NCBI GenBank assembly: GCA_017395245.1
Contig: JAFPVR010000011.1
Coordinates: forward strand, 54,659 to 118,658
Length of the DNA: 64,000 nt
DNA from: Bacteroidales bacterium
GTDB taxonomy: Bacteria > Bacteroidota > Bacteroidia > Bacteroidales > WCHB1-69
Direction: 5' to 3'
Positions 7,692 to 61,530 of the stretch are shown here, in pieces; positions within the stretch are counted from its first letter, which is position 1, and the number at the start of each line of letters is the position of its first letter. Made by a program: the position numbers and the translations under genes. The notes under the pieces are model-generated. The model searched no databases. It worked only from the letters and a program-made list of their open reading frames with translations, and was not told the DNA's origin.

Positions 7692-7699
7692 TATCTTTG
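7692..7699 (+). promoter_or_regulatory. -7 box TATCTTTG (ATPase 7716)
   Basis: TAnnTTTG, 17 nt before the ATG. Confidence 0.55.
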
Positions 7700-7715
7700 C
7701 AAAAAAATTCAGGTC

Positions 7716-9146: not shown

Positions 9147-9157
9147 ATACCACTTTT

Positions 9158-9868
9158 ATGCATTACTTCTACTCCCTTGACATATCCCAACCCTTCGTCA
9201 CCTTAAGCAACGAAGAATCAGAACATTGCGTACGGGTGATGCGGCACCGCGAAGGCGATGCCGTGCGCGTCACGGACGGGCGCGGGCACTTGGCGGAGGC
9301 AGTCGTGGCGGAAGCGCACCCCAAAAAGTGCCTGTTGGAGATTCGTCAACAAATCACCGACAATATCCTTACACACAACGGTTTGCATTTGGCCATCGCA
9401 CCCACCAAAAACGCCGACCGCATGGAGTGGCTGTTGGAGAAGGCCATCGAGATCGGCATCTACTCGCTGACGTTCCTGCAGTGCGACCATTCTGAGCGCA
9501 CGCACCTCAACCTCGACCGTCTGCAACGGTTGGCCATCGCAGCATTGAAACAGTCGCAAACCACGTGGCTGCCGCCGCTCAAGACGATGAAATTCACGGA
9601 TTTTATCCAACAAAACATTGACACACAAGCAGATAAATTCATCGCGTGGTGTGACGAGAACAACCAGCGACAATTGGTGGACATGCCACGGCAATTTCCT
9701 GAAATGATTTTATTGATTGGTCCCGAAGGCGACTTTAGTGAAGAGGAAATTTCCCTGGCACGCGAGTCCGGCTATATAGAAGTAAAGCTCGGCGACCGAC
9801 GGCTTCGTACGGAAACAGCGGGGCTTTATGGATGCCTTGCGGCATCTGTGAATGTTTTGCGGAAATAA
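9158..9868 (+). CDS. rsmE: 16S rRNA (uracil1498-N3)-methyltransferase
   Basis: MHYFY start, HCVRVMRHREGD, LLIGPEGDFSEEE...LG.RRLRTETA motifs of RsmE. Confidence 0.85.
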   Translation: MHYFYSLDISQPFVTLSNEESEHCVRVMRHREGDAVRVTDGRGHLAEAVVAEAHPKKCLLEIRQQITDNILTHNGLHLAIAPTKNADRMEWLLEKAIEIGIYSLTFLQCDHSERTHLNLDRLQRLAIAALKQSQTTWLPPLKTMKFTDFIQQNIDTQADKFIAWCDENNQRQLVDMPRQFPEMILLIGPEGDFSEEEISLARESGYIEVKLGDRRLRTETAGLYGCLAASVNVLRK

Positions 9869-9944
9869 TGCGGAAAAGCGGAAAAATGCGGAAACCTGTT
9901 ATAAATTTCCGCACTTTTCCGCTTTTCTGCGAATGTTTCCGCAA
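9857..9944. terminator. Long imperfect hairpin between convergent rsmE and dnaJ (bidirectional terminator candidate)
   Basis: The left arm TTGCGGAAATAATGCGGAAAAGCGGAAAAATGCGGAAA pairs with the right arm TTTCCGCACTTTTCCGCTTTTCTGCGAATGTTTCCGCAA. The arms are built from GCGGAAA repeats. Confidence 0.7.
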
Positions 9945-9946
9945 TA

Positions 9947-11119
9947 TTACTGGAAGAATTGTCTGACGCGGTTGAACACGCTCTTGTCTTTCTTGCCGGG
10001 CTTCGGCACAAAATTCTCGTGCGTGCTCAGTTGCTCCAACATCGCTTTTTCCTCCTTGGTCAGGGACTTCGGAGTCCAGACATTGACATTGACGATGAGG
10101 TCGCCGACAATGCGCGAGTTGACTTGCGGTAATCCCTTTCCTTGCAAACGCAGGATTTGTCCGCTCTGCGTACCGGGCGCAATCTTGATTTTGACCTTGC
10201 CGGTAAGCGTGGGCACCTCCACGGAAGCACCGAGCGCAGCCTGCGGAATGCTGACGTAGTAGTTGAGGTAGAGGTTGTTGCCGTCACGCTCGAAGAGGTC
10301 GTGGTCGGCCACCTCGAAGACAACGAGCAGGTCACCGTTGACACCGCCGCGTTGCGCGGCATGGCCCTTCTGCGGCACCGTCATCTGCATGCCGCTATCG
10401 ACGCCGGCGGGGATGTTGATGGTGATGACCTCCTCGCCCGACACCGTGCCGTTGCCGTGGCAGTGCGGACAGGGATCTTTGACAATCTCGCCGCTGCCGC
10501 CGCACTTCGGACAGACGCTGGCCTGCTGGATAATGCCGAACACACTGCGCTGTTGGCGAACGACCTGGCCGCTGCCGTGGCAGTCGGGACAGGTGGTGAC
10601 CCCGTGGTCGTCCTTTGCACCGGTACCATGACAGTGCGGGCACGGCACTTGCTTGTTAATCTTGACTTTCTTTTCCATCGGAGCGGCCACCTCTTCAAGG
10701 TTCAGCTTCACCTTGATGCGGATGTCGCCGCCGCGGCGCACACGCCGTTGCTGACCGCCGCCACCGAAGCCGCCACCGAAGCCGCCACCGAAGTTAAATC
10801 CGCCGAAGCCGCCACCAAAGCCGCCACCGAACACATCGGCAAAGTGGCTGAAGATGTCGCTGAAGTTCATGCCGGAGAAGTCGCTGGCTTCGGCACCCAT
10901 ACCGGCGTGACCGAACTGGTCGTAACGCGCCTTCTTGTCGGGATTGCTCAGCACATCGTACGCCTCCGCAGCCTCCTTGAACTTCTCCTCCGCCTCCTTG
11001 TCGCCCGGGTTGCGGTCGGGGTGGTATTGCATGGCCTTCTTACGGTAGGCCTTCTTTATCTCGTCTGCCGAGGCCTCTTTCGAGACACCCAACACCTCAT
11101 AATAGTCTCTTTTTTCCAT
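9947..11119 (-). CDS. dnaJ: Molecular chaperone DnaJ
   Basis: J domain with HPD (YHPDRNPGD), G/F-rich linker, four CxxCxGxG zinc motifs. Confidence 0.97.
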
Positions 11120-11134
11120 ACTGGTGTCCCTTTC

Positions 11135-11764
11135 TTACTGGCCGACCACCACTTTCGCGTAGCGGATGACCTTGTCTTTGAGTTTATAGCCCTTCTCCGT
11201 GACGTCGATGACCTTGCCCTTGTCCTCCTCTTTCTGTGCGGGGAAATGGGTGACGGCCTCGTGGAAGTCGGTATTGAACTCCTCGCCCTTGGCTTGGATT
11301 TCCTCCACATCGAAGCGTTTCATCATTTGAAGCAACTTATTGTAAATCAGGTTAAAACCTTCCTTGATAGAGTCAATATTGTCGGCTTTTTCGTTAGCGG
11401 TGATAGCACGTTCGAAATCGTCGATAATAGGCAGAATGCTCACAATCACCTTCTCGGAGGCGGTGGAAATCAGGTCAAGTTTCTCCTTGCTGACCCGTTT
11501 CTTGTAGTTGTCAAATTCGGAAAAGAGGCGCAGGAAACGGTCGTTGAGTTCTGCCTTCTCGGTATTCAGCTTCTCAATTTCTGCCTGCAACTCCTGGATT
11601 TTTTCTTTGTCTTTGTCTTTCTTTTTGCCAAAGAAACCTTTCTTATTTTTGTCAGTATTCTCCTCTTTTTCCGACAAATTGTCAGTATTTTCCTGTTCTT
11701 CCACATTCAGTTCAGGCTCTTGTACCTGTTCTTCCTGAATCTTATTTTCTTGATTCTCTTCCAT
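11135..11764 (-). CDS. grpE: Nucleotide exchange factor GrpE
   Basis: Acidic coiled N-terminus, then RL.AEFDNYKKR and a C-terminal beta domain. Sits directly upstream of dnaJ. Confidence 0.95.
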   Translation of the reverse strand: MEENQENKIQEEQVQEPELNVEEQENTDNLSEKEENTDKNKKGFFGKKKDKDKEKIQELQAEIEKLNTEKAELNDRFLRLFSEFDNYKKRVSKEKLDLISTASEKVIVSILPIIDDFERAITANEKADNIDSIKEGFNLIYNKLLQMMKRFDVEEIQAKGEEFNTDFHEAVTHFPAQKEEDKGKVIDVTEKGYKLKDKVIRYAKVVVGQ

Positions 11765-11906
11765 ATTACGTTTATTTTCAATTACTTACATACACAATTA
11801 ACCAGCGGTGTCGAATGATTGTTTCGAACCGCCGCTGTCATATAGCAAATAATTTGCCAAAAATGTCACAGGAGCTTCGGCATTCCTGCCAAAGTCGTTA
11901 TTGTCG

Positions 11907-11937
11907 TTTTGCGGCAAGAATGCCGCATCTCCTAAAA
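11907..11937 (+). repeat. Hairpin element TTTTGCGGCAAGAATGCCGCATCTCCTAAAA (family 2)
   Basis: TGCGGCA-AGAA-TGCCGCA stem-loop just upstream of the module-1 promoter box. Confidence 0.8.
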
Positions 11938-11942
11938 AAATG

Positions 11943-11950
11943 TATTTTTG
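11943..11950 (+). promoter_or_regulatory. -7 box TATTTTTG (module 1)
   Basis: TAnnTTTG, 21 nt before GTG 11971. Identical context in module 2. Confidence 0.65.
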
Positions 11951-11970
11951 CCGAATAAAACAACAACAAG

Positions 11971-14244
11971 GTGAGAGCCATCAAATTCATACTCTGTGGG
12001 TTATTATTGTGGTCGCTGGCCGTCGGGCTGCGAGCGCAGTGCCCGGATTTTATGGATTTGAACAGTGAAAATGTGCGCTGCTATTATGGAATGACCTACA
12101 ATCCTATGTTAGACACAGGGGTGGTGGCTGGACGACATACTCTCATTACGCAGCAGGGCACCGACTTTCGGACGAATCACGAACTGCCGCTTCTTCCAGC
12201 GGGTGAAACTGCTGTCATAAGGTTAGGAAACGACCTGTCAGGGGCGGAAGCCGAATCTATCGTATATACCTTCACCGTTGACCCCGACAACTCCATCCTA
12301 CTGATAAAATATGCCGTGGTGCTGGAAAATCCCAATCATGAGAGTCCGGCACAACCCCGTTTCATCATCCGGATGCTTGACGAGAATAACGAACTGCTTG
12401 ATCCTTGTATGGAATATGACGTCACCTCGTCCGACAATCTTCCTGGTTTCCAGTCGTTTGGAAGTATCCAATGGAGACCTTGGACCAACAACGGCTTTGA
12501 CCTCTCCACGTATGCAGGAGAGACCGTCAAGTTGCAGCTCATCACCTATGATTGCAGTTGGGGCGCCCACTTCGGATACGCCTACTTCACGGCCTCCTGC
12601 ATCAGCAACCGGCTCTCCTTGGATAGCTGCGACGGAAACCAAGTCACCTTGTCCGCGCCTGCGGGCTTCGAAAGCTACAACTGGAGCAACGGTGCCACCA
12701 CGGAAACCACCACCTTTACCGTGCAGGGCAATTCGACCGTCAACTGCGCCATAAGCACCGTCACCGGATGCCTGTTCACGCTTTCCGCCATCATCACCTC
12801 GCAGAATATCCCGGGAGAGGACCTCGTCTTGTACGATACAATCTGCGAAGGGGAACCGTATCAGAACAACGGCTTCGATCTGCCACCCGTTGACCATCCT
12901 GGAATCAACGTTTTCCACAACACATACGTCAACCTATCCAACTGTTCCGACGACATTACCGCGACGCTCTACCTCTATGCGAAACAGCGTTATTTCCATA
13001 TCTATGACATGGCTTGCGAAGGGAACAACTATGACGACAACGGGTTCCATTTCACAAATCTGACAGTGGGCGAAATCGTTGATACTAACTATGTTACTAT
13101 TGCTAACGATTGTGATTCCATTACGGTGTTGCACCTCACTGTCAATTCCTCTTTTACATTGGATAATGTTATCAACGGTCCGACAGAGGTTTGCAGTAAC
13201 ACCTCGGGAAATTACTATTTGGCTAATCCGTTAGGGCTCACCTCCTACTTTTGGAATGTTCCTGACGGGGTGGAAATCGTTTATGGGCAAGGTACCAGCG
13301 TCGTCCAGCTTTTTTTCTCGCAGACGGCGCCCAACCCCTCGCATATTTCGCTGACGGGTGCTAACGGGTGCGGAAATGCCTCCACCCCGCTTGATGTGAC
13401 GGTACATCCTTCCTATATGAATATTGTTCACGATACGGTGTGTTCGGGAGAGACCTATTCGCAGTATGGCTTTGACCTCGGAGTGTTGAACGAAGCGGGA
13501 AATTTTGTACACACACGGACGGAAAGCTCTGCATACGGCTGCGAAAATGTTGATATTCTGCTTCTTTTCGTGTCGGAAACCCCGCCGGTGTCGGTCCTTG
13601 CCGATCCGCAAGAGCTTTGTTTGGGCGAAACGACCGAGCTGCACGCCGCAGGTTCGCAATCGTCCGTCACCCTGTTATCACAGTTGCCGAAAGTTTGGGT
13701 GGGCGACATCCTCTGCACCGACAACAGTTTTGTGCATCCGCAAGACTGGCCCTGCGGCAAAACAGCCATGGGAATCGTCTTTTATGTGGATAGTACCGGT
13801 GAACATGGATGGGCGGTCAATCTGCAAGACGAGCCTGGCACCTATTCTTGGGCTGGTAATTCTTCTCCGCTGGACGACCCCTCGCTGACCTACTACAACT
13901 ACGGGAGATTCGCGTTGGAGAATATGGACGGGCTCACGAACACGTTCGTCATCCGGCAGTATGGGAACAGCGAAGATTACCCAGCCGCATACGCCGTGGA
14001 TTTTGACCAAGGCTGGTATCTGCCTGCCGCCGGACAAGCCTATCACCTTTATGCCGAACTACCTCGGGTGAACATCTCTTTGCAATTGGCTGGAGGAACC
14101 CCTTTCCCAATGAATTCCTCTTGGGTTTATTGGACTTCTACTATTGGTAGCATCATCAAAGTGTGGGTGCTGGACAATCAGCATGGACTTTATTCCTCGG
14201 TAATGAATCATCCGTATTTGGTGCGAAGCGTTCGTAGTTTTTAA
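11971..14244 (+). CDS. Large secreted Cys-repeat protein with C-terminal DUF1566-like domain (module copy 1, protein A)
   Basis: GTG start. Signal peptide MRAIKFILCGLLLWSLAVGLRAQC. Repeated YDTICEGxxYxxxGF...C(D/E)(S/N)(I/V) modules. C-terminal VGDILCTD...GWAV...VDFDQGWYLPAAGQ...YWTS...VRSVRSF. Paralogue of 15949-18261. Confidence 0.8.
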   Translation: MRAIKFILCGLLLWSLAVGLRAQCPDFMDLNSENVRCYYGMTYNPMLDTGVVAGRHTLITQQGTDFRTNHELPLLPAGETAVIRLGNDLSGAEAESIVYTFTVDPDNSILLIKYAVVLENPNHESPAQPRFIIRMLDENNELLDPCMEYDVTSSDNLPGFQSFGSIQWRPWTNNGFDLSTYAGETVKLQLITYDCSWGAHFGYAYFTASCISNRLSLDSCDGNQVTLSAPAGFESYNWSNGATTETTTFTVQGNSTVNCAISTVTGCLFTLSAIITSQNIPGEDLVLYDTICEGEPYQNNGFDLPPVDHPGINVFHNTYVNLSNCSDDITATLYLYAKQRYFHIYDMACEGNNYDDNGFHFTNLTVGEIVDTNYVTIANDCDSITVLHLTVNSSFTLDNVINGPTEVCSNTSGNYYLANPLGLTSYFWNVPDGVEIVYGQGTSVVQLFFSQTAPNPSHISLTGANGCGNASTPLDVTVHPSYMNIVHDTVCSGETYSQYGFDLGVLNEAGNFVHTRTESSAYGCENVDILLLFVSETPPVSVLADPQELCLGETTELHAAGSQSSVTLLSQLPKVWVGDILCTDNSFVHPQDWPCGKTAMGIVFYVDSTGEHGWAVNLQDEPGTYSWAGNSSPLDDPSLTYYNYGRFALENMDGLTNTFVIRQYGNSEDYPAAYAVDFDQGWYLPAAGQAYHLYAELPRVNISLQLAGGTPFPMNSSWVYWTSTIGSIIKVWVLDNQHGLYSSVMNHPYLVRSVRSF

Positions 14245-19771: not shown

Positions 19772-19802
19772 TTTTGCGGCAAGAATGCCGCAGCTCCTAA
19801 AA
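19772..19802 (+). repeat. Hairpin element, family 2
   Basis: TTTTGCGGCAAGAATGCCGCAGCTCCTAAAA after the second module's REP. Downstream sequence then diverges into the aminotransferase promoter. Confidence 0.8.
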
Positions 19803-19831
19803 TATCCTTCCGTATGTATTCGAATTTTCAG

Positions 19832-19839
19832 TATTTTTG
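19832..19839 (+). promoter_or_regulatory. -7 box TATTTTTG (aminotransferase)
   Basis: TAnnTTTG, 36 nt before ATG 19875. Confidence 0.6.
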
Positions 19840-19874
19840 CCGCCTTATTTTTAAGATCTATCAATTCAAAAAAT

Positions 19875-21107
19875 ATGGAAAGAATTTCAAAGAGAGTTTT
19901 GGGAATGCCGGCTTCCGAGACGCTGGCAATGACAGCATTAGCACGTGAGTTAAAGGACAAAGGTCAGGATGTGATCAGCCTGAGTATCGGCGAGCCCGAT
20001 TTCAACACGCCGGAAACGGTGAAGGAGTATGCCAAACAGGCCATCGACGACAACTTCACGCACTATCCGCCCGTGCCCGGCTATGCGGACCTCCTGAAAG
20101 CCATCAGCAACAAGTTCAAGAGAGACAACGGTCTGGACTACACACCGCAACAGATTGTGGTTTCCACCGGCGGCAAACAGTCCATCTATCAGGCTGTTAT
20201 GGCTTTGGTGAACCCCGGCGACGAAGTCATCATCCCCACTCCCTACTGGGTTTCCTACCGTGCCATCGCGCAGATGGCGGAGGCCGACATCAAGTACGTT
20301 CCCTGCAAGATTGAGAACGATTTCAAGATTACCCCTGCCCAATTGGAGGCTGTCATCACCCCGAAGACCAAACTGATGATGTTCAGCAGCCCTTCGAATC
20401 CTACGGGCATGATCTACTCCAAGGAGGAGCTTCGCGCCATCGCTGAGGTGGTGGCCAAGCATCCGCAGATGATGATTATGTCGGACGAGATTTACGAGCA
20501 CATCAACTTCGTGGGCGGTCATGAGAGCATCGCCCAGTTCGATTTCATCAAGGATCAGGTGGTCACGGTGAACGGTGTGGCGAAAGGTTTTGCCATGACC
20601 GGCTGGCGTATCGGTTTCATCGGCGCCCCCGTGGATGTGGCCAAGGCTTGTAACAAGCTGCAAGGTCAGATCACGTCCGCCACGGGCTCCATCTCGCAAC
20701 GCGCAGCGTTGCGGGCCATGGAGATGGATCCGAAAACTTCCGAGGACATTATCAACATGCGCGACACCTTCCTCAAACGCCGCGACCTGGTTTATGGTCT
20801 GCTGAAGGAGATTCCCGGCTTCGAAGTGACTCTGCCGCAGGGTGCCTTCTACTTCTTCCCGAAGGTGAGCAGCCTCTTTGGCAAGCACATCCCCGCCGAC
20901 TCCAAATTCGCCGCCCAGTACAACAAGACGGTCATCGAGAACTCCACCGACCTGGCCTTCTACTTCCTGTTGGACGGCAGCGTCTCCACCGTCCAAGGCA
21001 CCGCCTTCGGCGACGACGACTGCATCCGCCTCTCCTACGCCACCTCCGAAGACCGCCTCATCGAAGCCTGCAAGCGCATCAAAGCCGCCGTGGAGGCGTT
21101 GAGTTAA
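19875..21107 (+). CDS. Pyridoxal-phosphate-dependent aminotransferase (aspartate aminotransferase-like)
   Basis: Start at MERISKRVLGMPASETL. Class I aminotransferase pattern SLSIGEPDFNTP, SNPTG, NGVAKGFAMTGWRIG (PLP lysine). Confidence 0.9.
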   Translation: MERISKRVLGMPASETLAMTALARELKDKGQDVISLSIGEPDFNTPETVKEYAKQAIDDNFTHYPPVPGYADLLKAISNKFKRDNGLDYTPQQIVVSTGGKQSIYQAVMALVNPGDEVIIPTPYWVSYRAIAQMAEADIKYVPCKIENDFKITPAQLEAVITPKTKLMMFSSPSNPTGMIYSKEELRAIAEVVAKHPQMMIMSDEIYEHINFVGGHESIAQFDFIKDQVVTVNGVAKGFAMTGWRIGFIGAPVDVAKACNKLQGQITSATGSISQRAALRAMEMDPKTSEDIINMRDTFLKRRDLVYGLLKEIPGFEVTLPQGAFYFFPKVSSLFGKHIPADSKFAAQYNKTVIENSTDLAFYFLLDGSVSTVQGTAFGDDDCIRLSYATSEDRLIEACKRIKAAVEALS

Positions 21108-21132
21108 GACTTGAGACTTGAGACTTAAGACT
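21105..21132 (+). repeat. Heptamer tandem repeat (TRAGACT)x4
   Basis: TAAGACT TGAGACT TGAGACT TAAGACT followed by TTTTT. The first unit contains the aminotransferase stop codon. Confidence 0.9.
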
Positions 21133-21140
21133 TTTTCCAT

Positions 21141-21271
21141 AAGGGCCGAAGGCCTGAAGTATGCTAACCCAGGGTGAGCGATAGCGAGCCCTGGGATATA
21201 CAAGAAGATAATACCAAAAGGGCTGCAAGCCCGAAACGTGTCAACCCAGGGTGAACGCAGTGAGCCCTGGG
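21141..21271 (+). repeat. Two tandem double-hairpin elements with about 77-bp period
   Basis: AAGGGCCGAAGGCC...AACCCAGGGTGAGCGATAGCGAGCCCTGGG and AAGGGCTGCAAGCCC...AACCCAGGGTGAACGCAGTGAGCCCTGGG. Confidence 0.85.
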
Positions 21272-34794: not shown

Positions 34795-34859
34795 AATCTT
34801 TATAATCGTTTGTAAATTAACAAAATAAGTGTATTGTTCCGCTTTGGGGGAACAAGCGG

Positions 34860-34867
34860 CAAAGATA
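34860..34867 (-). promoter_or_regulatory. -7 box TATCTTTG on minus strand (valS)
   Basis: Plus strand CAAAGATA, 66 nt upstream of the valS start and directly after the heptamer hairpin. Confidence 0.55.
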
Positions 34868-34894
34868 GTATTTTTTGGGTTACAGGCTTCAAAA

Positions 34895-34931
34895 AGACGT
34901 AAGACTTTAGACTTAAGACTTTAACGAGACT
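34895..34931 (+). repeat. Inverted short arm of the same heptamer (AGACKTW x4-5)
   Basis: AGACGTA AGACTTT AGACTTA AGACTTT AACGAGACT is the reverse complement of the family at 34941-35087, separated by a 9-nt loop. An A5 run (T5 on the minus strand) flanks it. Confidence 0.85.
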
Positions 34932-34940
34932 ACAATCCAT

Positions 34941-35087
34941 AGTCCCAAGTCTCAAGTCTTAAGTCTCAAGTCTCAAGTCTCAAGTCCCAAGTCCCAAGTC
35001 CCAAGTCTCAAGTCTTAAGTCTTAAGTCTTAAGTCTCAAGTCTCAAGTCTTAAGTCTCAAGTCTTAAGTCTCAAGTCCCAAGTCTAT
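34941..35087 (-). repeat. Heptamer tandem repeat, 21 units (plus strand AGTCYYA; minus strand TRRGACT)
   Basis: AGTCCCA/AGTCTCA/AGTCTTA units counted by eye. The last unit overlaps the stop of 35084-36418. Confidence 0.95.
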
Positions 35088-36418
35088 TTAAAGAAATGCC
35101 TTTCCGCACTATGGCAGCCGGCCTCCATAAAAGAGATATATTCCAAGAAGACCTCATCGGGCGTTTGCGGGAAAGAGGAGTGCCCGAATGCATCTGCCAG
35201 TTTTGCAAGCTGTTGCAAGTTGTTATATTCCAACAAATTGCCATCCTCTGCGACATACTGATGCGGAACTTTGGCCGTGTCCGTGTAGGTGCCGGAAACC
35301 TCTTCGGGGAGGTTGGCGGGGAGGATTACGTCGTAGCGGTCTGCATTATCGGGAAGGTAAGCGGTTTGCAGCACCGAAAACTCCGCCTTATCCACCTGGT
35401 TGGCAATGTCTTGCGGGATTTCTGTTCCGAGGGCGTTCCAAAGCAACACGTTGCGGAAGGCGGTGCCGTCGAGGGATGAGGACAGATTCACGGGCGCAGC
35501 GCATACGGGCATGCCCAAAACAGTCTCCATCTTCTGCCGCATCGCATCGTCCAATGCGTGCCCACCCGGCGCGATATGCGGGAATATTCCCATGTCGAAC
35601 AATCCCTGGCTGTTCAGCTCGCCTTTGATGGTCAGAAACCCGGAAGCGGGCTTTGACTGCACATCGAGCAACATGCAGAGGTTCTCCAACTCGTGGTAGG
35701 CCTTTTCTGTCAGCCACCGCTCCCACACAATAAAAGCAGGAGCTTGAATCGCGATTATATCATCAACAAACTTTTGTATGTCAGCGTTTTGTAGATTATT
35801 CTTTTGCAGAAGAGCCTCATAGTCATCCGCTAATAAGGCCTGCTTGTAAGCCCCGTAATTCTTGCCCAAGACCTCCACATAGATGCCCTTCTCCAAATGA
35901 TGTTGGATCAGGTAAAAGTTGACGCTGCGGAAGAAGGCGTAATAGTCCGTAATGTTCAGGGTATCAGGGGTGTTGAACCAGTAGCGCGAGGTGTCGGGAC
36001 AATGTTTCAGGATTTCGAAAACGGCCTTTAACGTTTCCGGAATCTGTAGAGACGTGCCATGGCGCGTCTCCGCATTCGGGAATATGCAATAGAATTTGTC
36101 CGACTGGAACATCTCCGCAAACGGCAGGATATCGTTCTTGTCGGCGAAAAAATCGGTGCCGCGCCGATAGTAGTCAAACGACCCCAATGCATTGGTGTTC
36201 AACACGGTACGCGCAAAACGTTGTAACAAATAGAGGGTTTCGTTGGAATAGCTGCCGGAGGTCATCACCAATGTACCATTGGTTTCCGACTTTTGTAATT
36301 TTTGGCCAATATATTGGAATGCCTCCTCAAACGGCACCTCCACTAATTGTCCGTTTTTTCGAATATATGGTTTGGTAATTCGTTGATTCATCGTGACATC
36401 GTTAAAAAAGTTGTCCAA
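35084..36418 (-). CDS. Molybdopterin-oxidoreductase-family-like protein (no N-terminal Fe-S Cys motif seen)
   Basis: The N-terminus ITKPYIRKNGQLVEVPFEEAFQYIGQKL...SNETLYLLQRFARTVLNTNALGS resembles domain I of the formate dehydrogenase/NuoG family. Carries an in-frame REP palindrome. Confidence 0.55.
   Translation of the reverse strand: MDNFFNDVTMNQRITKPYIRKNGQLVEVPFEEAFQYIGQKLQKSETNGTLVMTSGSYSNETLYLLQRFARTVLNTNALGSFDYYRRGTDFFADKNDILPFAEMFQSDKFYCIFPNAETRHGTSLQIPETLKAVFEILKHCPDTSRYWFNTPDTLNITDYYAFFRSVNFYLIQHHLEKGIYVEVLGKNYGAYKQALLADDYEALLQKNNLQNADIQKFVDDIIAIQAPAFIVWERWLTEKAYHELENLCMLLDVQSKPASGFLTIKGELNSQGLFDMGIFPHIAPGGHALDDAMRQKMETVLGMPVCAAPVNLSSSLDGTAFRNVLLWNALGTEIPQDIANQVDKAEFSVLQTAYLPDNADRYDVILPANLPEEVSGTYTDTAKVPHQYVAEDGNLLEYNNLQQLAKLADAFGHSSFPQTPDEVFLEYISFMEAGCHSAERHFFK
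36046..36073. repeat. REP-like palindrome inside a CDS
   Basis: GTAGAGACGTGCCATGGCGCGTCTCCGC. On the minus strand it is read in frame as AETRHGTSL within 35084-36418. Confidence 0.85.
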
Positions 36419-38804: not shown

Positions 38805-38843
38805 TACCCCCCCTGCCCCCCTAAGGGGGGGGATTACTCCCCG

Positions 38844-38918
38844 TAAACCTCTAAACTCCTAAACTCTAAACATTCTATAACCAATAACCAATAACCGATA
38901 ACCAATAACCCTTACCCA
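38844..38918 (+). repeat. 7/8-mer tandem tract (TAAACYC x4, then ATAACCA x6)
   Basis: Ends 1 nt before the hydG ATG. A/C-only strand bias. Confidence 0.85.
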
Positions 38919-40438: not shown

Positions 40439-40459
40439 AGGTGCAGCGGCATTGCGTGC

Positions 40460-40609
40460 GCCCCACACTGCGCTTTGCTTGTGTGGGGTTAATTGCGCTT
40501 CGCGCGTCTTGTCTCTTCGAGGCTGCTCCTTGTTCGTAAGCCCCCCACACTGCTCTCCGCTTGTGTGGGGTTAATTGCGCTTCGCGCGTGTTGTCTCTTC
40601 GAGACTGCT
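40460..40609 (+). repeat. Two tandem approximately 70-bp structured elements with 80-bp period
   Basis: Each copy reads CCCCACAC-N11-GTGTGGGG TTAATT GCGCTTCGCGC G..TT GTCTCTTCGAG(G/A)C TGCT. Confidence 0.85.
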
Positions 40610-40641: not shown

Positions 40642-40872
40642 ATGAAAAAGAAACTGATATTTATCCTTATTGTTTGCGCAACTGTTTGCATATCAACCTC
40701 TTGCGCGAGAAAGGTCAACGGCGCCACGCCGCACCGCCGCGACCGCAACTGCGGCTGCGAGAACCTCTCCCCCACCCCGAACAATGTACAATGTACAATG
40801 AATAATGTACAATTCACCGATTACAGATCACAGTTCACTAATCACCAATCACTGATCACCAATCACCAATGA
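40642..40872 (+). CDS. Possible small lipoprotein; C-terminal third encoded by heptamer repeats
   Basis: MKKKLIFILIVCATVCISTSC lipobox-like signal. The stop overlaps the next ATG (ATGA). The TATTTTTG box ends only 5 nt before the ATG, so expression is uncertain. Confidence 0.35.
   Translation: MKKKLIFILIVCATVCISTSCARKVNGATPHRRDRNCGCENLSPTPNNVQCTMNNVQFTDYRSQFTNHQSLITNHQ
40781..40871 (+). repeat. Heptamer tract, 13 units (ACAATGT... then ACYRATC/ACCAATC)
   Basis: 7-nt phase maintained over 91 nt. Ends on the ATG of 40869-41597. Confidence 0.9.
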
Positions 40873-43396: not shown

Positions 43397-43624
43397 ATGT
43401 GTACTTTTGGTGAGAAAACGAACCATTGTTGGAGTAAATGGAGAAAAAGCTCAATCCAAAAGCTGCTCGACCTGCAGGGCCGGAAGCTGGCCACCCTCTT
43501 GGATTCGCCCGCCGGCACGTCCCTGCCGGTGATCGACCTCTCGCCCTATCCCTCCGGCACATACCTTGTGAAGATCAACTTCGAGCGGGGGGTGAGCGTG
43601 GTGAGGAAGGTGGTTAGGAGTTAG
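43397..43624 (+). pseudogene. Orphan relic of a T9SS C-terminal sorting domain
   Basis: ...IQKLLDLQGRKLATLLDSPAGTSLPVIDLSPYPSGTYLVKINFERGVSVVRKVVRS* is a CTD-like approximately 60-aa tail with no upstream protein body. Confidence 0.5.
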
Positions 43625-43704
43625 TAGTTGTAGTTGGTTCGCAGGGCGATTATTCGCGGAGGCAAACTTGTCTCGTAATTGGAAGCTTTACTTGTTTTTG
43701 GACA

Positions 43705-47885: not shown

Positions 47886-47919
47886 CCCAATCACTATTCA
47901 CCAATCACCAATCACAATG
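47886..47919 (+). repeat. Heptamer tract (CCCAATC ACTATTC ACCAATC ACCAATC ACAATG)
   Basis: Same ACCAATC unit as at 40844-40871. Runs into the rlmB ATG. Confidence 0.85.
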
Positions 47920-49945: not shown

Positions 49946-50874
49946 TTCAACGCCTTCTCTCTCAATGAATTGAAACCATAACCCAACGTCTCGGACGCAT
50001 CCAGAATCGTCACGAACGCCTTGTCGTCGATTTCGTGAACGAAATGGATGAGCACCGGCAACTGTTTGCGGGAGATGGAAGTGAAGATAATCTTCTTCTC
50101 GTCGTGGTTGTACATTCCCTCGCCGTTGAGGTAGGTGCCGCCGCGATCCAGCTCGTCGAAAATGCGCTGCCGAATTTCCTCGTATTTTTCGGAAATAATC
50201 AACACCGCCTTGTTGCCGTGGAAGCCCGCGATGACCTTGTCCATCACCACGCCGGTCACGTAAATTACTAACCAAGAATACAACGGCACAGTCCAGTCTT
50301 TGAAGGCGATCAAAGCGATGAGCACAATGGTGGAGTCAACAAAGATAAGGATAGTACCTAACGGGATGTGTTTCAAATACTTGCCGATAATCATGGCTAT
50401 AATGTCGGTACCGCCGGACGTGGCACGGGTCTTGAAAATCAAGCCTAATCCGATGCCGATAATCACCCCGCCGAACAGGGCGACGATAAACGTGGCCGAC
50501 GGGTCGGGGGTCATGGGGTCGCCCGGCATTCCAATCAGCGGCGCATAGCCGTAAACCTTCTCCCACAGCGAGATGAACGCCGGCAATGTAATCACGCCCA
50601 CTAATGTTTTCGCCCCGAACTTGGGTCCGAGCCAAAGCGTGCCGATGAGCAGCAACGGCAAGTCGAGACAGATGCCCGACAAACCGATGGGGAAATTGAA
50701 CACGTGGTGCAGGATGATGGCAATACCGTAAACGCCGCCTGGTGCGAGTTTCAGCGGCGAGATAAACACCACAAAGCCGATGGACATGATAAACGTACCC
50801 AGGATGATGAGGCCGTAGGTGCGGATAAGTTCTTTCGTTTTTTCTTTCGTTAAGGTCATATTGATAGGTTTCAA
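49942..50874 (-). CDS. YitT family membrane protein (DUF2179 C-terminal domain)
   Basis: Five or six TM segments, then ...KAVLIISEKYEEI...GGTYLNGEGMY. Confidence 0.85.
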   Translation of the reverse strand: MKPINMTLTKEKTKELIRTYGLIILGTFIMSIGFVVFISPLKLAPGGVYGIAIILHHVFNFPIGLSGICLDLPLLLIGTLWLGPKFGAKTLVGVITLPAFISLWEKVYGYAPLIGMPGDPMTPDPSATFIVALFGGVIIGIGLGLIFKTRATSGGTDIIAMIIGKYLKHIPLGTILIFVDSTIVLIALIAFKDWTVPLYSWLVIYVTGVVMDKVIAGFHGNKAVLIISEKYEEIRQRIFDELDRGGTYLNGEGMYNHDEKKIIFTSISRKQLPVLIHFVHEIDDKAFVTILDASETLGYGFNSLREKALN

Positions 50875-51000
50875 GTTTCAGGATTCAGGTTTCAAGTAGT
50901 CAAAGTCAAAGTCAAAGTCAAGGTCAATGGTCAATGTCAATGGTCATAGTCAAAGTCATAGTCATAGTCAATGGTCAAGGTCAAAGGTCAACAAGGGTCA
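50868..51000. repeat. Hexa/heptamer tract (GTTTCAR x4, then GTCAAA/GTCATA/GTCAATG about 18 units)
   Basis: Fills the spacer between the dnaG stop (51002) and the yitT-family start (50874). Confidence 0.9.
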
Positions 51001-54399: not shown

Positions 54400-54553
54400 A
54401 TCACAATTCACTCTTCACAAATCACTCTTCACAAATCACTCTTCACAAATCACTCTTCACAAATCACTCTTCACAAATCACAATTCACAAATCACTCTTC
54501 ACAAATCACAATTCACAATTCACAAATCACAATTCACAAATCACAATTCACCT
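54400..54553. repeat. Heptamer tract, 22 units (ATCACTC/TTCACAA/ATCACAA)
   Basis: Occupies essentially the entire spacer between the cytidylyltransferase stop (54555) and the SDR gene start (54398). Confidence 0.95.
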
Positions 54554-55271: not shown

Positions 55272-56521
55272 ATTTTTTTAGGTTTTTGTATCGGATAATC
55301 ATTGGGCCATTCCACTGTCTTGCCATTCAGGAAATCCGCCATCTTCTGTGCGATGTCCTTGGCAGCATGGCCCGTCTCGTTCAGTCCCATTCTCACGGCA
55401 AAGGCATCCCACTTCTTCAGATATTCCTCCATGTCGAAAGCCTTCACGTTCTGCTCCATCTCATCATTGTTCTTGGCGTAGGGGAAGGGGAGTTCTTCCA
55501 TTTCGTAATAGACGCCACGTTCCTCATACTTATACGCCTCGAAGTCGGTGGCGTATGTAAAGCAGGGTATCCGCCTGAGTGCAGCATCGAAGATACAACT
55601 CGAATAGTCGCTTATCATTACGTCTGTCGCCATCAGTAGCCGTTGCATATCCTGATAGTCCGTCACGTCCATCGCCTCCGGATGCCCTTCCTGGTAGCCC
55701 TTGGCATATAGCCCCTCCTTGGGGTGGAATCTGATGAGCATCGTCCACTCACCACCAAACTTCTCAGTCAGTGCCTTTCCCAAACGCTTCATGTCCAAAT
55801 CATAAACTGTCATGTCAATATGGTGTTCCTCAGAAAAGCGAAGCCGCCAGGTGGGTGCATAAAGCAACACTTTATGATCCTGGGGAATGCCAAGGTCGTT
55901 ACGAGCCTTCACGCCGTCCTCAGGGTTGTTCTGCACCAGCATGTCGTTCTTGGGATAGCCACATTTCCAGATAGGGCCATGGAATTTGAAAGCCCTGCGA
56001 TAGATAGCAGACAGATGGTCGGAATTTGAGACAAACACATCTGCCATGTCCGAGTGATTCTTGAACATTCTGATATTTTTCCTGTCGGCAGCATAATCTC
56101 CGATGATATCCCCGGCAACTTTCTTGACACCCAGCCCGCCATGCCAGGTTTCCACATACAGCTGGCCTTTGCGCTTTACGAAATAGTCGGGTACTATAAC
56201 ATTACTATTCCATATCTTGGCCGTGACATACTCATACACACATCGCCAACTTTGCCATTTTACAGGCCTTGTCCATTCTGGCAGTTCATATTCAAATTTG
56301 GGATTCTTCACCCAAACGATATCCAAATCAGGAATGAGCTTATGAAGCTCCTCCATGATATACTTCTGGTTGTCGTCATAGCGGCTGCCTTTAAACACTG
56401 AAACCAGAACTTTATTCTTCTTTATCGGGAATGTGCGCAACAGGTAGAACAAGGCAACAATTATAGCCCCTCCTATTGGCCTGAGCACAGGCCTTGTTAT
56501 TTTCCATATCTTCTGTTTCAT
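55268..56521 (-). CDS. CDP-alcohol (glycerol/ribitol) phosphotransferase, TagB/TagF/TarL family
   Basis: ETWHGG.G.KK, LYAPTWR and SDYSS..FD motifs of CDP-glycerol glycerophosphotransferases. Confidence 0.85.
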   Translation of the reverse strand: MKQKIWKITRPVLRPIGGAIIVALFYLLRTFPIKKNKVLVSVFKGSRYDDNQKYIMEELHKLIPDLDIVWVKNPKFEYELPEWTRPVKWQSWRCVYEYVTAKIWNSNVIVPDYFVKRKGQLYVETWHGGLGVKKVAGDIIGDYAADRKNIRMFKNHSDMADVFVSNSDHLSAIYRRAFKFHGPIWKCGYPKNDMLVQNNPEDGVKARNDLGIPQDHKVLLYAPTWRLRFSEEHHIDMTVYDLDMKRLGKALTEKFGGEWTMLIRFHPKEGLYAKGYQEGHPEAMDVTDYQDMQRLLMATDVMISDYSSCIFDAALRRIPCFTYATDFEAYKYEERGVYYEMEELPFPYAKNNDEMEQNVKAFDMEEYLKKWDAFAVRMGLNETGHAAKDIAQKMADFLNGKTVEWPNDYPIQKPKKI

Positions 56522-56532
56522 CTTAATTTACC

Positions 56533-57486
56533 TTAATCAATTGGATTAATTTCTATAAAATTATTCTTATCAGTAGGACGTATTTTCATCCACCGTAAAA
56601 CATCACCTACAGCAGTTCTTATCTTTGTATAAATGGACCTGTTATCTACCTTTATTCCCCTCCATTTCGATAAATTTTGGTATTTATAAAAAGAACTACT
56701 ATAAGGATTATGGTACTTGATATACTTCGTCCAGGGTTTTCCTCCTGTGTAATGGATAATCACAGGATTCTTACGAGCCTCCAACACTTGCTGCTCATAC
56801 TTCCAATAATCGTACAGCGGCTCTTTCCAGAGATGCCCATGCTGAAAATTAAATTTAATGGGAAGCATGATTTTCTGCTCATGGAACACATCATTCAGCA
56901 CATCTTGATCATGGTAAACAAGTTGCGCGTGGTGTTTTTGTATGCAGTCCAGAAATCGCTCCAAAGCATGATGTTCTCGCCAGTATTTCAAATTAATAAG
57001 CAACATGCCAGAATTAAAATACCCCCACGATGGCGAGTATTTCAATCGGTTATATCTGTCAATAACTCCCTCTCGCATATCAGGAACGGCAGCCAGGGCA
57101 TAGCCCGAAACATCCGTATTCCATAATTCCGTCAAAGAGTGTCTGACGATGATGTCTCCGTCAAAATATAACACCTTGTCCACTTTTTCTGGAAGTAATG
57201 CTGACAGAAACAGTCGATAATACGCAGCTCTTGGGATCCTTATGTCTATATTGGGGAACTGATTATCTATAATATTGAGTGGAATTGGATAGAATGTGAT
57301 GGCTTTGCCCTTATAGGAAGCAAGCAACTCCTTCAGGTCATTGCATTGACTGGTTGAGACGTCCGTATCTGTTACAAGATGAAAATGTATATCCACCTCC
57401 GGGTTGTTCTCGCAGACGGAGATCATCATGACGCCAGTGGGCATCACATTTCTTTTATCGGTACAAGCAACTATATCCATAGCCAA
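56533..57486 (-). CDS. Glycosyltransferase family 8
   Basis: YYRLFL...KVLYFDGDIIV (DxD) and HYTG..KPW motifs. Confidence 0.8.
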   Translation of the reverse strand: MAMDIVACTDKRNVMPTGVMMISVCENNPEVDIHFHLVTDTDVSTSQCNDLKELLASYKGKAITFYPIPLNIIDNQFPNIDIRIPRAAYYRLFLSALLPEKVDKVLYFDGDIIVRHSLTELWNTDVSGYALAAVPDMREGVIDRYNRLKYSPSWGYFNSGMLLINLKYWREHHALERFLDCIQKHHAQLVYHDQDVLNDVFHEQKIMLPIKFNFQHGHLWKEPLYDYWKYEQQVLEARKNPVIIHYTGGKPWTKYIKYHNPYSSSFYKYQNLSKWRGIKVDNRSIYTKIRTAVGDVLRWMKIRPTDKNNFIEINPID

Positions 57487-58397
57487 AAAGCGTATATGTA
57501 TAACATGACTTGATATAGCATAGAATGGCCTTTACAAAGGTCGTTAATTGCTTTCAATTTTGACGGATATATCTCGTCGAGCTTAAAAAAGTAATATTTA
57601 AACAACCTGCGGTCCTGTTTTAACATCCTCCATAGATAAGGCTTTAGCTTGCGTTCTCTGTCAAATTTATTTTGCATCAAAAATCTGTCCGCACGAAAAA
57701 CCACTTTTGCCCTTATCTCTAACTCTCCTGGTTTAGAACAAAAATCAGAAGCTAAAGAGTTGGGACGGAGAGTGCAAACATAGAGGACTGTATTGACTAC
57801 TTTAATGCTTTTAGCATGATAACCTGATTGCAGAGAAAATAATATATCATTAGCATACATTACTTCGTCAAATCTGATATTGAATTTGTTTATCAAATCT
57901 CTTTTAATCAATTTGCTCCATGGAATATCCAACTTAACTCTAATAGGCCAGTCGTCTCCATCTAAAAAATATTGATCAATTACCCTATTTAGATTAATAT
58001 CTCTAACATCTTCTATATTAACATTATCAGAGAGAACTGACTTCATTTTGAAGAATATGATATCTGCTTCAGAATCGTTATAAGAAAGAATCATATCGTA
58101 CATACCTTCAACAAAAAAGTCATCTGCATCAGCAAACAGCAGCCATTTTCCTTTGGCATGATCTAGTCCGATATTCCGAGCATAACCTGCCCCTCCATTT
58201 TTTTGAGCACGAATAAACTCTAAGTATGGCCGAGATAGTTCTGGATACTTTTCCAAATAGGTATCTGCATCAGGGCTGTTATCATCCACCACAATGACCT
58301 GAATATCCTTAGATACAGGTATCGACTTCAGACATCGCATCAGCAAGTCTGGAATATCGAAATGAGGTATTATGATACTAAATAACGGCTTATCCAT
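57471..58397 (-). CDS. Glycosyltransferase family 2 (paralogue A)
   Basis: FSIIIPHFDIPDLLMRCLKSIP...VIVVDDNSPD...GAGYARNIGL...FADADDFF. Confidence 0.85.
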   Translation of the reverse strand: MDKPLFSIIIPHFDIPDLLMRCLKSIPVSKDIQVIVVDDNSPDADTYLEKYPELSRPYLEFIRAQKNGGAGYARNIGLDHAKGKWLLFADADDFFVEGMYDMILSYNDSEADIIFFKMKSVLSDNVNIEDVRDINLNRVIDQYFLDGDDWPIRVKLDIPWSKLIKRDLINKFNIRFDEVMYANDILFSLQSGYHAKSIKVVNTVLYVCTLRPNSLASDFCSKPGELEIRAKVVFRADRFLMQNKFDRERKLKPYLWRMLKQDRRLFKYYFFKLDEIYPSKLKAINDLCKGHSMLYQVMLYIYAFWLWI

Positions 58398-59320
58398 ATT
58401 AGAAACGAATACAAGTACAATTTGATTTTAAATCTGCGAGAGCAACCTTTACTGATGTCTTTCAGCGCAGCTATCTTAGATGGATAGATCCCGTCTAATC
58501 TTGTGAAGTAGTATTTATATAAATTCCTGTCTTGACTTAACATCCTTTTTAAATATATTGCAGTTTGTCCGATTTGGCACATATTGTGTTGAAATAGAAA
58601 AGAATCATATCTGAATGCCGCTCCTGCTCTAATTTTTAATTCATCAGTTTTTGTACAAAACCCCGAATGTAGTGAACCTTCACGAGATGTCACGACATAT
58701 AGGACAGTATCAATGGCTTCGATCTTATTTGCAAAACAACCTACATGTACGGAAAAAAGAATGTCATTAGAATACTTGATTTCTTCAAAACGAATACGAT
58801 GATTCTCTATCAGGCTTTTCTTAATCATTTTACCCCATGGAACATGATGTCTGGTTCTTACAGGCAGTTCATCACCCGTTTTGAGATAAATATCCATAAT
58901 TCTGTCAAGATAGCCACTTCTGGTTGATTTACGGTTTATATCATCAGAATAAACTGCCTGCTTTCGGAAATAGATAACATCGGCGTCAGATTCTACATGC
59001 GTATTAATAATATCATACATATTGCCCACAAAGAAGTCATCTGCATCTGCAAACAACAGCCATTTCCCTTTTGCATGATCTAATCCGATATTTCGGGCAT
59101 ATCCAGCCCCTCCATTCTTAGAAGCACGAATAAACTCTAAGTATGGACGAGACAGCTCTGGATATCTTTCCAAATATGTATCTGCATCAGGGCTATTATC
59201 ATCCACTACAATCACCTGAATATCTTCAGATACTGGGATTGACCTCAGGCACCGCATCAGCAGATTTGGTATGTCTTTATGAGGTATGATGATACTAAAC
59301 GTTGGACTCACCAATGTCAT
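58370..59320 (-). CDS. Glycosyltransferase family 2 (paralogue B)
   Basis: Same motifs as A. Start at MTLVSPTFSIIIPH preferred by analogy with the paralogues; the track start 59353 would overlap paralogue C. Confidence 0.8.
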   Translation of the reverse strand: MTLVSPTFSIIIPHKDIPNLLMRCLRSIPVSEDIQVIVVDDNSPDADTYLERYPELSRPYLEFIRASKNGGAGYARNIGLDHAKGKWLLFADADDFFVGNMYDIINTHVESDADVIYFRKQAVYSDDINRKSTRSGYLDRIMDIYLKTGDELPVRTRHHVPWGKMIKKSLIENHRIRFEEIKYSNDILFSVHVGCFANKIEAIDTVLYVVTSREGSLHSGFCTKTDELKIRAGAAFRYDSFLFQHNMCQIGQTAIYLKRMLSQDRNLYKYYFTRLDGIYPSKIAALKDISKGCSRRFKIKLYLYSFLIWISRYLVS

Positions 59321-59334
59321 ATTAGCCGTAATAC

Positions 59335-60267
59335 TCACAGGACTCTTATCCATACTAGAAACGAATATAAACAGAATTTGACTTTAAATCTCCAGGATTT
59401 GTTCCTGCTAATATCTCGTAATGCCGACAATTTCGACGGATAAATCTCATCAAGTTTAAAAAAATAGTATTTGAACAGTTTCCGGTCTTTATTGAGCATG
59501 AGTAACAAATATTGTTTCATGGACCTTTCCTTACACATTTGATGCTGATGCAAAAACAGATCAGAACGATAATGCACTTCTGCCCTTATTCTTAACTCAT
59601 TTGGTTTTGAACAATAATTAGCCGCTAACGAATCGGGGCGAGAAGTTAAGACATAAAGGACTTTATTAACTACCTTAATTGTTTCTGCATGGTATCCTAC
59701 AAGCAAAGAGAAAAACACATCATTTGAGTATCTTATTTCTTCAAAGCGGATGTTAAATTTATTAATCAAATCTCTTTTGATCATCTTGCCCCATGTAGGA
59801 CAATACATAAATCTTAAAGGCCATTCGTCACCATTCGCATAATAATTATTAATCATACTATCAATATAAATATCCCTATCTGTTTTTTGGATAATATTTT
59901 CTGAAAGTACAGATTCTATCTTGAAATATATGACATCTGCTTCCGATTCTGCATTTGAAGAAATGATATCATACATATCTTCCACATAAAAATCATCGGC
60001 ATCAGCAAACAGTAGCCATTTGCCTTTAGCATGCTCCAGTCCTACATTCCTGGCATAGCCAGCCCCTCCTCCTGTTTTCGTCCTGATAAACTCCAAATAA
60101 GGACGCGACAATTCAGGATACCTCTCCAAGTAGGTGTCAGCATCGGCACTATTGTCATCGACTACTATCACCTGAATATCCTCAGATACAGGGATGGACT
60201 TCAGGCACCGCATCAGCAGATCCGGTATGCCTTTATGAGGAATAATGATGCTAAATATAGGATTCAT
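59335..60267 (-). CDS. Glycosyltransferase family 2 (paralogue C)
   Basis: MNPIFSIIIPHKGIPDLLMRCLKSIP...VVDDNSAD...FADADDFY. Confidence 0.85.
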   Translation of the reverse strand: MNPIFSIIIPHKGIPDLLMRCLKSIPVSEDIQVIVVDDNSADADTYLERYPELSRPYLEFIRTKTGGGAGYARNVGLEHAKGKWLLFADADDFYVEDMYDIISSNAESEADVIYFKIESVLSENIIQKTDRDIYIDSMINNYYANGDEWPLRFMYCPTWGKMIKRDLINKFNIRFEEIRYSNDVFFSLLVGYHAETIKVVNKVLYVLTSRPDSLAANYCSKPNELRIRAEVHYRSDLFLHQHQMCKERSMKQYLLLMLNKDRKLFKYYFFKLDEIYPSKLSALRDISRNKSWRFKVKFCLYSFLVWIRVL

Positions 60268-60395
60268 ATCTTTATGATGTACCTCCTTGTAACTGAGCCT
60301 TGATAAACTCCTGAATATCGGTTGAAGTCACGTTATATATAGGAGATAATGTTTCAAATTGACTATCCTTAGAGAAGAATTCACCAAACCTTTCA

Positions 60396-60734
60396 TCACG
60401 CTGTCAATTTTCTGTTAAGTTCGCGAGTAGCCATTGACCTGACATAGGCACCTGGCTTTTTCATCTTGAAATAATACCATGCGAAGAACTTATTAAGCAC
60501 ATAGTACATTTCGCCCTGTACTACTACATTCTTTATCCATGCCTCCTTGACAAACTTATATGGATAAATCTCAAAAAGTATGTTGATATCGTCTAAGTCA
60601 AGATGCAGCATAACCAATTCCACCAAGATGTCATCACGTACATCCTTGATGGCACTGGCCTTATACGACCAGAAAGCATTTGCCTTCTTCAGTCGTCTTA
60701 TCAGTTCTTTTTTCTGCTTATCTTTCTTATCCAT
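60396..60734 (-). CDS. Hypothetical small protein
   Basis: Start at MDKKDKQKKELIRRLKKANAFWSY, 24 nt downstream of a TATTTTTG box on the minus strand. AT-rich. Confidence 0.45.
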   Translation of the reverse strand: MDKKDKQKKELIRRLKKANAFWSYKASAIKDVRDDILVELVMLHLDLDDINILFEIYPYKFVKEAWIKNVVVQGEMYYVLNKFFAWYYFKMKKPGAYVRSMATRELNRKLTA

Positions 60735-60757
60735 ATCACACATGCACATTCCGTTTG

Positions 60758-60765
60758 CAAAAATA
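60758..60765 (-). promoter_or_regulatory. -7 box TATTTTTG on minus strand (internal promoter in glycopolymer locus)
   Basis: Plus strand CAAAAATA, 24 nt upstream of ATG 60734. Confidence 0.45.
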
Positions 60766-60822
60766 AGAAATAATCTGCAATTTTGCAAATAACTCTGGAA
60801 AAAAATAGCAAGAAATGAAATG

Positions 60823-61500: not shown

Positions 61501-61530
61501 ATTCCTTCTTTAGTTTAATATTACTCTTAC

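Follow-up and report, generated by a model that had tools for sequence, protein, structure and literature searches.

The subject of this analysis is a tandem array of heptanucleotides in the window, a stretch of 64,000 nucleotides from contig JAFPVR010000011.1 of an uncultured Bacteroidales bacterium of the rumen or ruminant gut (RUG, RGIG and reindeer metagenome-assembled genomes (MAGs); exact-protein look-ups and two collection scans). The array lies on the minus strand between the 3' end of one gene and the promoter of the next, valS, which encodes valyl-tRNA synthetase. We examined the region on both strands, and all coordinates are window positions (Table 1). The product of the upstream gene shows a weak N-terminal match to the molybdopterin-oxidoreductase domain (Pfam PF00384, residues 13-86), and its homologues bear the names molybdopterin-dependent oxidoreductase or formate dehydrogenase-like. 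The gene ends in ...TTC TTT AAA TAG, and its stop codon (35086-35084) sits within the first heptamer of the array, ATAGACT (35087-35081). The first-pass annotation had placed 21 units in perfect phase after this stop codon; the array is real, but 20 of its units are canonical and the stop lies inside the first, which makes up the number.

The 20 canonical units, of the form TRRGACT, run in perfect phase from 35080 to 34941 and comprise nine TGAGACT, six TAAGACT and five TGGGACT; in a one-letter code per unit the order of the array is *GgagaggaaagGGGgggagG. Tandem Repeats Finder (TRF) returned a period of 7 with 20.7 copies and 90% matches, and the window holds 24 matches to the two-unit pattern, where shuffled sequences would give 0.13. 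The heptamer can be written as A plus a hexamer core, CTTRRG, of which the CTTAAG form is itself a palindrome, and in the sense RNA the CUUGAG and CUUGGG cores self-pair too, via G.U. Because its unit has a palindromic core, the array is complementary to itself as well as to the inverted arm that follows it.

That arm consists of four to five units, one of them out of phase by 4 nt, and is 85-93% complementary to the array in at least ten registers. The idea that array and arm were once a single continuous array with a mutated spacer base was rejected, since the cores of one arm are offset by 4 nt from the phase of those in the other. Beyond the arm, the U5 run ends 23 nt before the valS -7 box, whose distance from the valS ATG is the same in orthologues (sequence comparison). 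The succession of loop, inverted arm, T5 and -7 box set out in the first-pass annotation is thus real, and the layout is conserved in orthologues. The TTTG in the T5G run lies 22 nt before the -7 box and might also serve as a -33 element; we give this little weight, since the -33 element is not conserved in relatives without the hairpin.

Table 1. Features at the gene-to-valS boundary and the second array of the same unit (window positions).
Feature	Position	Strand	Basis or remark
Upstream gene	35084..36418	-	444 aa from TTG start; 417 aa as called in other assemblies
Heptamer array, 21 units (ATAGACT + 20 x TRRGACT)	34941..35087	-	variable 5' arm of predicted hairpin
9-nt loop ATGGATTGT	34932..34940	-	sequence comparison with orthologues
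Inverted arm AGTCTCG-TTAA-AGTCTTA-AGTCTAA-AGTCTTA-CGTC	34896..34931	-	inverted-repeat search; conserved 3' arm of predicted hairpin
T5 then G	34890..34895 (T5, 34895-34891)	-	directly 3' of stem; U-tract of putative intrinsic terminator
valS -7 box TATCTTTG	34860..34867	-	fits the Bacteroidetes -7 promoter consensus TAnnTTTG (PMC7366714)
Small candidate hairpin in valS 5' leader, CTTGTTCC...GGAACAAG	34834..34859	-	sequence comparison
valS (valyl-tRNA synthetase), 879 aa	32155..34794 (ATG at 34794)	-	Pfam tRNA-synt_1, Anticodon_1, Val_tRNA-synt_C
Second TRRGACT array, 4 units TAAGACT TGAGACT TGAGACT TAAGACT, then T5	21105..21133	+	pattern search

Copy number at the orthologous site varies from 0 to 23 among related strains with conserved flanks, which is the behaviour of a variable-number tandem repeat (VNTR). 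As read from short-read assemblies (handles beginning with L denote related contigs), the alleles hold 23 units in L059, 21 in the window, L001 and L002, 18 in L057, 17 in L061 and L063 (two independent assemblies with the same unit order), 8 in L058 and L010, 7 in L005 and L025, 6 in L004 and 5 in L026, and L021 has no array. The 435-aa protein encoded by L058 is the same as that of L059, and their flanking DNA agrees at 99.8% over 1.66 kb, yet the two differ by exactly 15 units, 8 against 23; the shorter array equals the first five plus the last three units of the longer. End units are conserved and interior unit order varies among lineages, as expected of a slippage-driven VNTR. Copy-number change had been anticipated from the array itself, and between strains the count is indeed not invariant.

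L001-L003 and the window represent one clone (0-1 mismatch in 18 kb), and we therefore downgraded the identical arrays of L001 and L002 as evidence of stability: the identical 21-unit order in three assemblies of this clone shows only that the assembly is reproducible and that no change took place among that clone's samples. Two pairs of near-identical assemblies likewise have identical unit orders. No indel alleles within the population were seen in the contigs of four runs, where k=31 contigs fragment in the array and cannot show minor variants.

Comparison separates this free-running array from a constrained half made up of the loop, the inverted arm and the U-run. The loop is identical in the window, L057, L058, L059, L061 and L004, and the loop, arm and T5 together are 100% identical in the window, L057, L058 and L061. 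From the loop to the valS ATG the tail is 96-97% identical, as against 87-88% for the upstream gene and 92-93% for the first 900 nt of valS.

For the sense RNA from 35100 to 34880 the predicted fold has an energy of -89.1 kcal/mol (z -10.4) and is nested. In this prediction, interior units pair mutually in 6-bp helices, each separated from the next by one A.A mismatch; a small hairpin arises from the last unit, the loop and AGUCUC; and the inverted arm is engaged by the outermost units as far as the U-run. Taken by itself, the terminal hairpin, made of the last six units, loop, arm and U5, is predicted at -44.6 kcal/mol (z -7.0). The first-pass annotation had proposed a hairpin that slides between registers. 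The many registers do exist, but with the palindromic core the predicted fold is defined and nested, so that register choice is unnecessary to explain the structure. The predicted probability that the 3' arm pairs all the way to the U-run does not differ among the 5-, 6-, 7-, 8-, 17-, 18-, 21- and 23-unit alleles, and the arm's equilibrium pairing is 0.82-0.84 across the 8- to 23-unit alleles; in these models the pairing of the arm is independent of unit number, and copy number does not visibly alter the geometry of the putative terminator.

The fold also favours one strand. In six lineages with a TRRGACT-type unit, sense and antisense folds are -83/-58, -52/-36, -53/-36, -47/-29, -49/-33 and -39/-22 kcal/mol, an advantage of 15-25 kcal/mol for the sense strand in all six. 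Variation within the arrays is nearly all A<->G opposite U, which leaves G.U pairs in the sense RNA and C.A mismatches in the antisense. A consensus structure from nine orthologues holds 32 pairs, and the changes in it are mainly one-sided, between AU and GU, with few broken pairs. Searches against Rfam returned only sub-threshold miRNA-precursor hairpin matches in the region and no gathering-level match anywhere in the window, so the hairpin is no known RNA family in that database; a tRNA/tmRNA search of the window found none.

We hold it probable, at roughly 60%, that the array is a heptanucleotide VNTR and makes up the 5' arm, able to expand, of a terminator-like hairpin that precedes the valS promoter. 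The array is a simple sequence repeat (SSR) and would belong to a lineage-wide population of intergenic period-7 repeats in this uncultured rumen Bacteroidales clade. Once transcribed, it would pair with itself and with the short conserved arm to give one long, imperfect, G.U-rich hairpin spanning from the stop codon of the upstream gene to U5. Hairpin and U5 would most likely constitute an intrinsic terminator or a 3'-end structure of the upstream gene and shield the promoter of valS. Constraint would fall on the loop, inverted arm and U5, leaving the 5' arm free to grow or shrink by replication slippage in 7-nt steps, and in this species the array may have lengthened to 21 units from some 5-8, a length that roughly matches the inverted arm. 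Like an intrinsic terminator, the element presents a stable predicted stem-loop on the sense strand 3' of the stop codon and before the next promoter, with a stem end ...ACGUC followed by UUUUU. Unlike one, it has a stem that extends over tens of base pairs, is rich in G.U and A.U, is built from tandem repeats and is followed by a U-tract of five residues. The short G+C-rich stem with a 3-8-nt loop on which standard predictors base their scores is missing: the units are 3/7 G+C, the loop has 9 nt and the stem contains mismatches.

Several observations weigh against this reading. G+C makes up only about 43% of the stem, the U-tract is short (five residues), and a standard consensus promoter/terminator scan of the minus strand called no terminator at the hairpin, which we count as a missing feature of the class and not as disproof of a terminator. 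L021, which is related as closely as L057, does without the element entirely: array, loop, arm and T5 are all missing, and the stop codon is followed by four bases and then by GTAACCCAAAAAATACTATCTTTGCC, the valS promoter region; the element is thus dispensable. A sister group (L006, L024, L034, L023 and L062) carries at the same site TTTAAGG units with an AAACCTT inverted arm. Its unit differs by two bases and the partner arm mirrors the change, which counts in favour of the reading; against it, the hairpins of this group precede an A-run, not a U-run, and show no asymmetry between sense and antisense. The small array at 21105, tried as an independent terminator, was rejected in that role, its fold being no more stable than those of shuffled sequences (z -0.6). 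A recent recombination tract or homogenisation, and not selection, could account for the conserved 3' arm. The 8-unit allele rests on one short-read assembly and may be a collapse of a longer array, which is unlikely to judge from the sequences, as the two array contexts share only 29 nt. Finally, metatranscriptome contigs hold array k-mers, mostly from relatives, and these k-mer contigs break inside the repeat, so that transcript 3' ends are unmappable.

The empty L021 site, the A-run and symmetry of the TTTAAGG hairpins, the lack of a scan call and the fold of the 21105 array make a purely neutral origin a serious rival, if on balance an unlikely one. The element, arm included, would then be a by-product of a 7-nt slippage bias of the lineage, tolerated between stop codon and promoter and with no role in transcription. 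In L021 the valS promoter is intact without the element, copy number spans 0 to 23, the unit type turns over at the site (TRRGACT, TTTAAGG, an 11-mer array, TAACCCA), heptamer arrays of many unrelated units occupy other spacers, and the simple scan calls no terminator, all of which a neutral by-product would lead one to expect. It accounts poorly for a loop, arm and T5 without a single difference between lineages whose neighbouring gene is 12% diverged, for nearly exclusive A<->G variation that keeps the sense pairing and its 15-25 kcal/mol advantage in six of six lineages, and for a stem end that coincides exactly with the U-run in every allele.

The turnover of the spacer extends to its edges. 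The last sense codon and stop of the upstream gene (35084-35092 in the window, and orthologues) change along with the unit type: AAA TAG ACT, AAA TGA GGACT or AGG TAA GGTT, the last with a change from K to R. The arrays thus reach the very end of the open reading frame (ORF) and, to judge from these sequences, seem to have rewritten it. L022, L031, L050 and L011 (orthologous spacer), and L035, hold other content, either an 11-mer array, AGAGCGACAGA, or a G+C-rich hairpin, GAGACGGGGCGAGCCCCGTCTC, the latter followed by TAACCCA heptamers just upstream of the promoter. In the sequences compared, the gene-to-valS spacer shows a rapid turnover of content. The small hairpin in the valS leader overlaps an alternative pairing, CCGCTT...AAGCGG, and L006 carries TTATTCC/GGAATAA there, a compensatory change; it may be a conserved leader structure.

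The heptamers at valS belong to a larger population. In a TRF census of arrays with at least three copies, covering about 530 kb of the window and related contigs and thus biased to one gene neighbourhood, period 7 accounted for 49 of 111 tandem arrays and was by far the commonest, with periods 14, 21 and 28 also present. Arrays were intergenic in 83 of 90 cases, and many touch a start or stop codon. The recurrence of the TRRGACT unit at a second site in the window, reported at the outset, holds: on the plus strand, the TAA stop codon of an aminotransferase gene (19785-21107) opens the first of the four units. Inverted pairs of heptamer arrays also occur at non-orthologous loci, with units TGTGACG/ACGTCAC and AGACGTA/GTCTTAC. 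Direct and inverted arrays of related units lie in non-orthologous spacers at L052 423-510, L015 3245-3330 and 11820-11910, and L017 1726-1793; their units (TGTGACG/ACGTCAC, AGACGTA/GTCTTAC and seven copies of GACGTAT) have the palindromic core ACGT. In four gut metagenome runs (X1-X4, on 34941-35095), array contigs reached depths of 1,000-14,000 against 12-54 on unique flanks, and array k-mers join many different flanks, with hundreds of different loose ends. Depth and flanks together indicate that the TRRGACT unit is multi-locus and very abundant in these ruminant gut metagenomes. A broader proposition is that slippage of heptamers with palindromic cores (CTTAAG, ACGT, TTAA) routinely makes, remodels and loses 3'-end hairpins, the length of the 5' arm modulating co-transcriptional folding and read-through; we regard this as speculative and rather improbable.

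Further period-7 and 14-mer arrays of the window lie at 38877-38910, 40781-40870, 43613-43635, 47887-47915, 50868-50991 and 54401-54551. Their units are unrelated (ATAACCA, ACAATGT, TCACNRA, GTTAGTA, CCAATCA, GTTTCAR, AGTCAA/GGTCAAT and TCACAAATCACTCT). All are in spacers, several reach a start codon (38920, 40869 and about 47917), and some span the entire spacer from stop to start, as between IspD and an epimerase gene and between dnaG and YitT.

The abundance of the TRRGACT unit, at many metagenome loci and again at 21105, could also be read at the level of DNA or of protein binding. A protein recognising heptamers in single- or double-stranded form (for example of the cold-shock or S1 type, or a nucleoid protein) might bind the phased units of the array, or a cruciform or slipped DNA might affect replication or supercoiling at the valS promoter; heptamer-binding OB-fold proteins have been proposed for TAACTGA repeats (PMC4679880). 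We think this very unlikely. The units in other spacers of this genome are quite different, which speaks against a single sequence-specific binder, A<->G variation degrades complementarity at the DNA level and not at the RNA level, and no candidate protein was identified.

Slightly less credible still is a contingency or rheostat locus, in which unit number would shift the balance between self-pairing and arm-pairing and so adjust, heritably and reversibly, how far transcription reads into valS or how stable the upstream mRNA is. Strains that are otherwise near-identical (99.8%) do differ, with 8 units against 23, many pairing registers are open to the inverted arm, and self-pairing of the array competes in the predicted fold. 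Against this, the predicted equilibrium pairing of the 3' arm is unchanged (0.82-0.84) in 8- to 23-unit alleles, valS is a housekeeping gene with its own conserved promoter, unit orders are identical in three assemblies of one clone and in two near-identical pairs, and the contigs of four runs hold no indel alleles. Neither does the array lie in an ORF or between promoter elements, as a phase-variable repeat would: the -7 box and the putative -33 are downstream of it, and unit changes shift neither reading frame nor promoter geometry. A role in phase variation is therefore unlikely.

Three established classes can be set aside. A G-quadruplex was rejected, as the array has at most three consecutive TGGGACT units (array units 13-15) and four tracts of at least three G are needed; a mobile palindrome of the miniature inverted-repeat transposable element (MITE) or repetitive extragenic palindromic (REP) type was rejected, with no target-site duplication at the empty site of L021 and a length that varies in 7-nt steps. 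The short tandemly repeated repetitive (STRR) sequences are a set of heptamers of heterocystous cyanobacteria, and this assignment was rejected as well, the host being a Bacteroidales and the unit TRRGACT different.

The closest described case is that of the heptamer repeats of Xanthomonas (GGGAATC) and Nostoc (GGGGAYT), arrays of 2-26 units that are intergenic and lie preferentially between co-directional ORFs (PMC4692102, Rehm et al. 2015). They often overlap a stop codon, are mostly transcribed, form 70-75 convergent (inverted) pairs per genome that could fold into stem-loops, and vary extensively in length between close relatives (PMC4692102). The valS array shares with them its 7-nt units, its intergenic and stop-adjacent position, its inverted partner and its variable length. 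It differs in that their units are G-tracts, proposed to form quadruplexes, whereas here a palindromic hexamer plus one base would give ordinary hairpins, and it comes from another phylum (Bacteroidota) and habitat (rumen).

Other repeats resemble the element in part. A unit of 7 had been called odd in the first-pass annotation, being neither a codon multiple nor a helical repeat; this is true, yet heptamers are a classic over-represented class of long bacterial SSR (PMC4679880, PMC4692102). Among long SSRs (LSSRs) with 5-11-nt units, heptanucleotides were the most abundant class (Mrazek et al. 2007, as summarised in PMC4679880 and PMC4692102). As those summaries describe it, the LSSR class matches the valS array in having tandem 7-nt units beyond chance, sporadic lineage-specific abundance, exclusion from coding sequence and slippage as the proposed origin; it is a statistical class without assigned structure, to which the valS array adds a predicted hairpin, U5 and a conserved partner arm. 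TAACTGA heptamers occur as direct repeats in Beggiatoaceae, Cyanobacteria and a few Bacteroidetes (MacGregor 2015, PMC4679880), mostly as 2-6 copies just upstream of start codons and with one inverted set among 170; long arrays of up to 43 copies are found in some Bacteroidetes, and binding of translational regulators has been proposed (PMC4679880). They too are intergenic, abut start or stop codons and carry stop codons in their units. Unlike the valS array they have another unit, are mainly short direct repeats and have not been proposed as hairpins. Like REP sequences and bacterial interspersed mosaic elements (BIMEs), which are dispersed intergenic palindromes at gene 3' ends, transcribed and thought to stabilise or terminate mRNAs, the arrays lie at gene ends; REPs are imperfect palindromes of fixed length, whereas the valS array has 7-nt units and a variable copy number. 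A search of the searchable literature found no description of heptamer arrays in Bacteroidales or rumen MAGs. The valS element joins a known class, that of intergenic heptamer SSRs with inverted partners.

The window holds other repeats and structures apart from heptamers. Its neighbourhood includes a C25 peptidase with a Por secretion tail, and between this gene and the aminotransferase gene lie two palindromic copies (21168-21195 and 21245-21271) of CCCAGGGTGA(G/A)CG..AG(C/T)GAGCCCTGGG, a second, REP-like repeat family; related 28-nt repeats occur at L013 5926-5980 and L028 2903-2973. At 40458-40609 there is a tandem duplication of about 82 bp with hairpin-forming GGGG/CCCC ends, of which L001 and L002 have one copy fewer though the remaining 18 kb are 100% identical; the difference is either real or an assembly collapse. 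A G/C homopolymer hairpin, C7-TG-C6-TAA-G8, follows a small TM1266-like ORF at 38807-38832 and precedes the ATAACCA array. Two blocks, at about 56000-62000 and 6000-8000, have a low G+C content (0.36-0.39 against about 0.52 elsewhere) and are possibly horizontally acquired genes.

What is notable about the valS element is the combination of a unit with a palindromic core, a clean split between a constrained and a free half, and a strain-level length polymorphism beside an essential gene. Short-read assemblies break at such arrays, and k-mer contigs fragment across this one; contig L003 of the window's clone begins 33 nt ahead of the valS ATG, some 100 nt 3' of the inverted arm. The arrays could serve as strain markers, and they are relevant to the prediction of operon boundaries in these MAGs. 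Should palindromic-core heptamers routinely make and remodel such hairpins, 'SSR-built terminators' would give strain-specific tuning of operon boundaries, for example of read-through into valS; and if the terminator reading of the valS element is true, mutational bias can supply regulatory structure.

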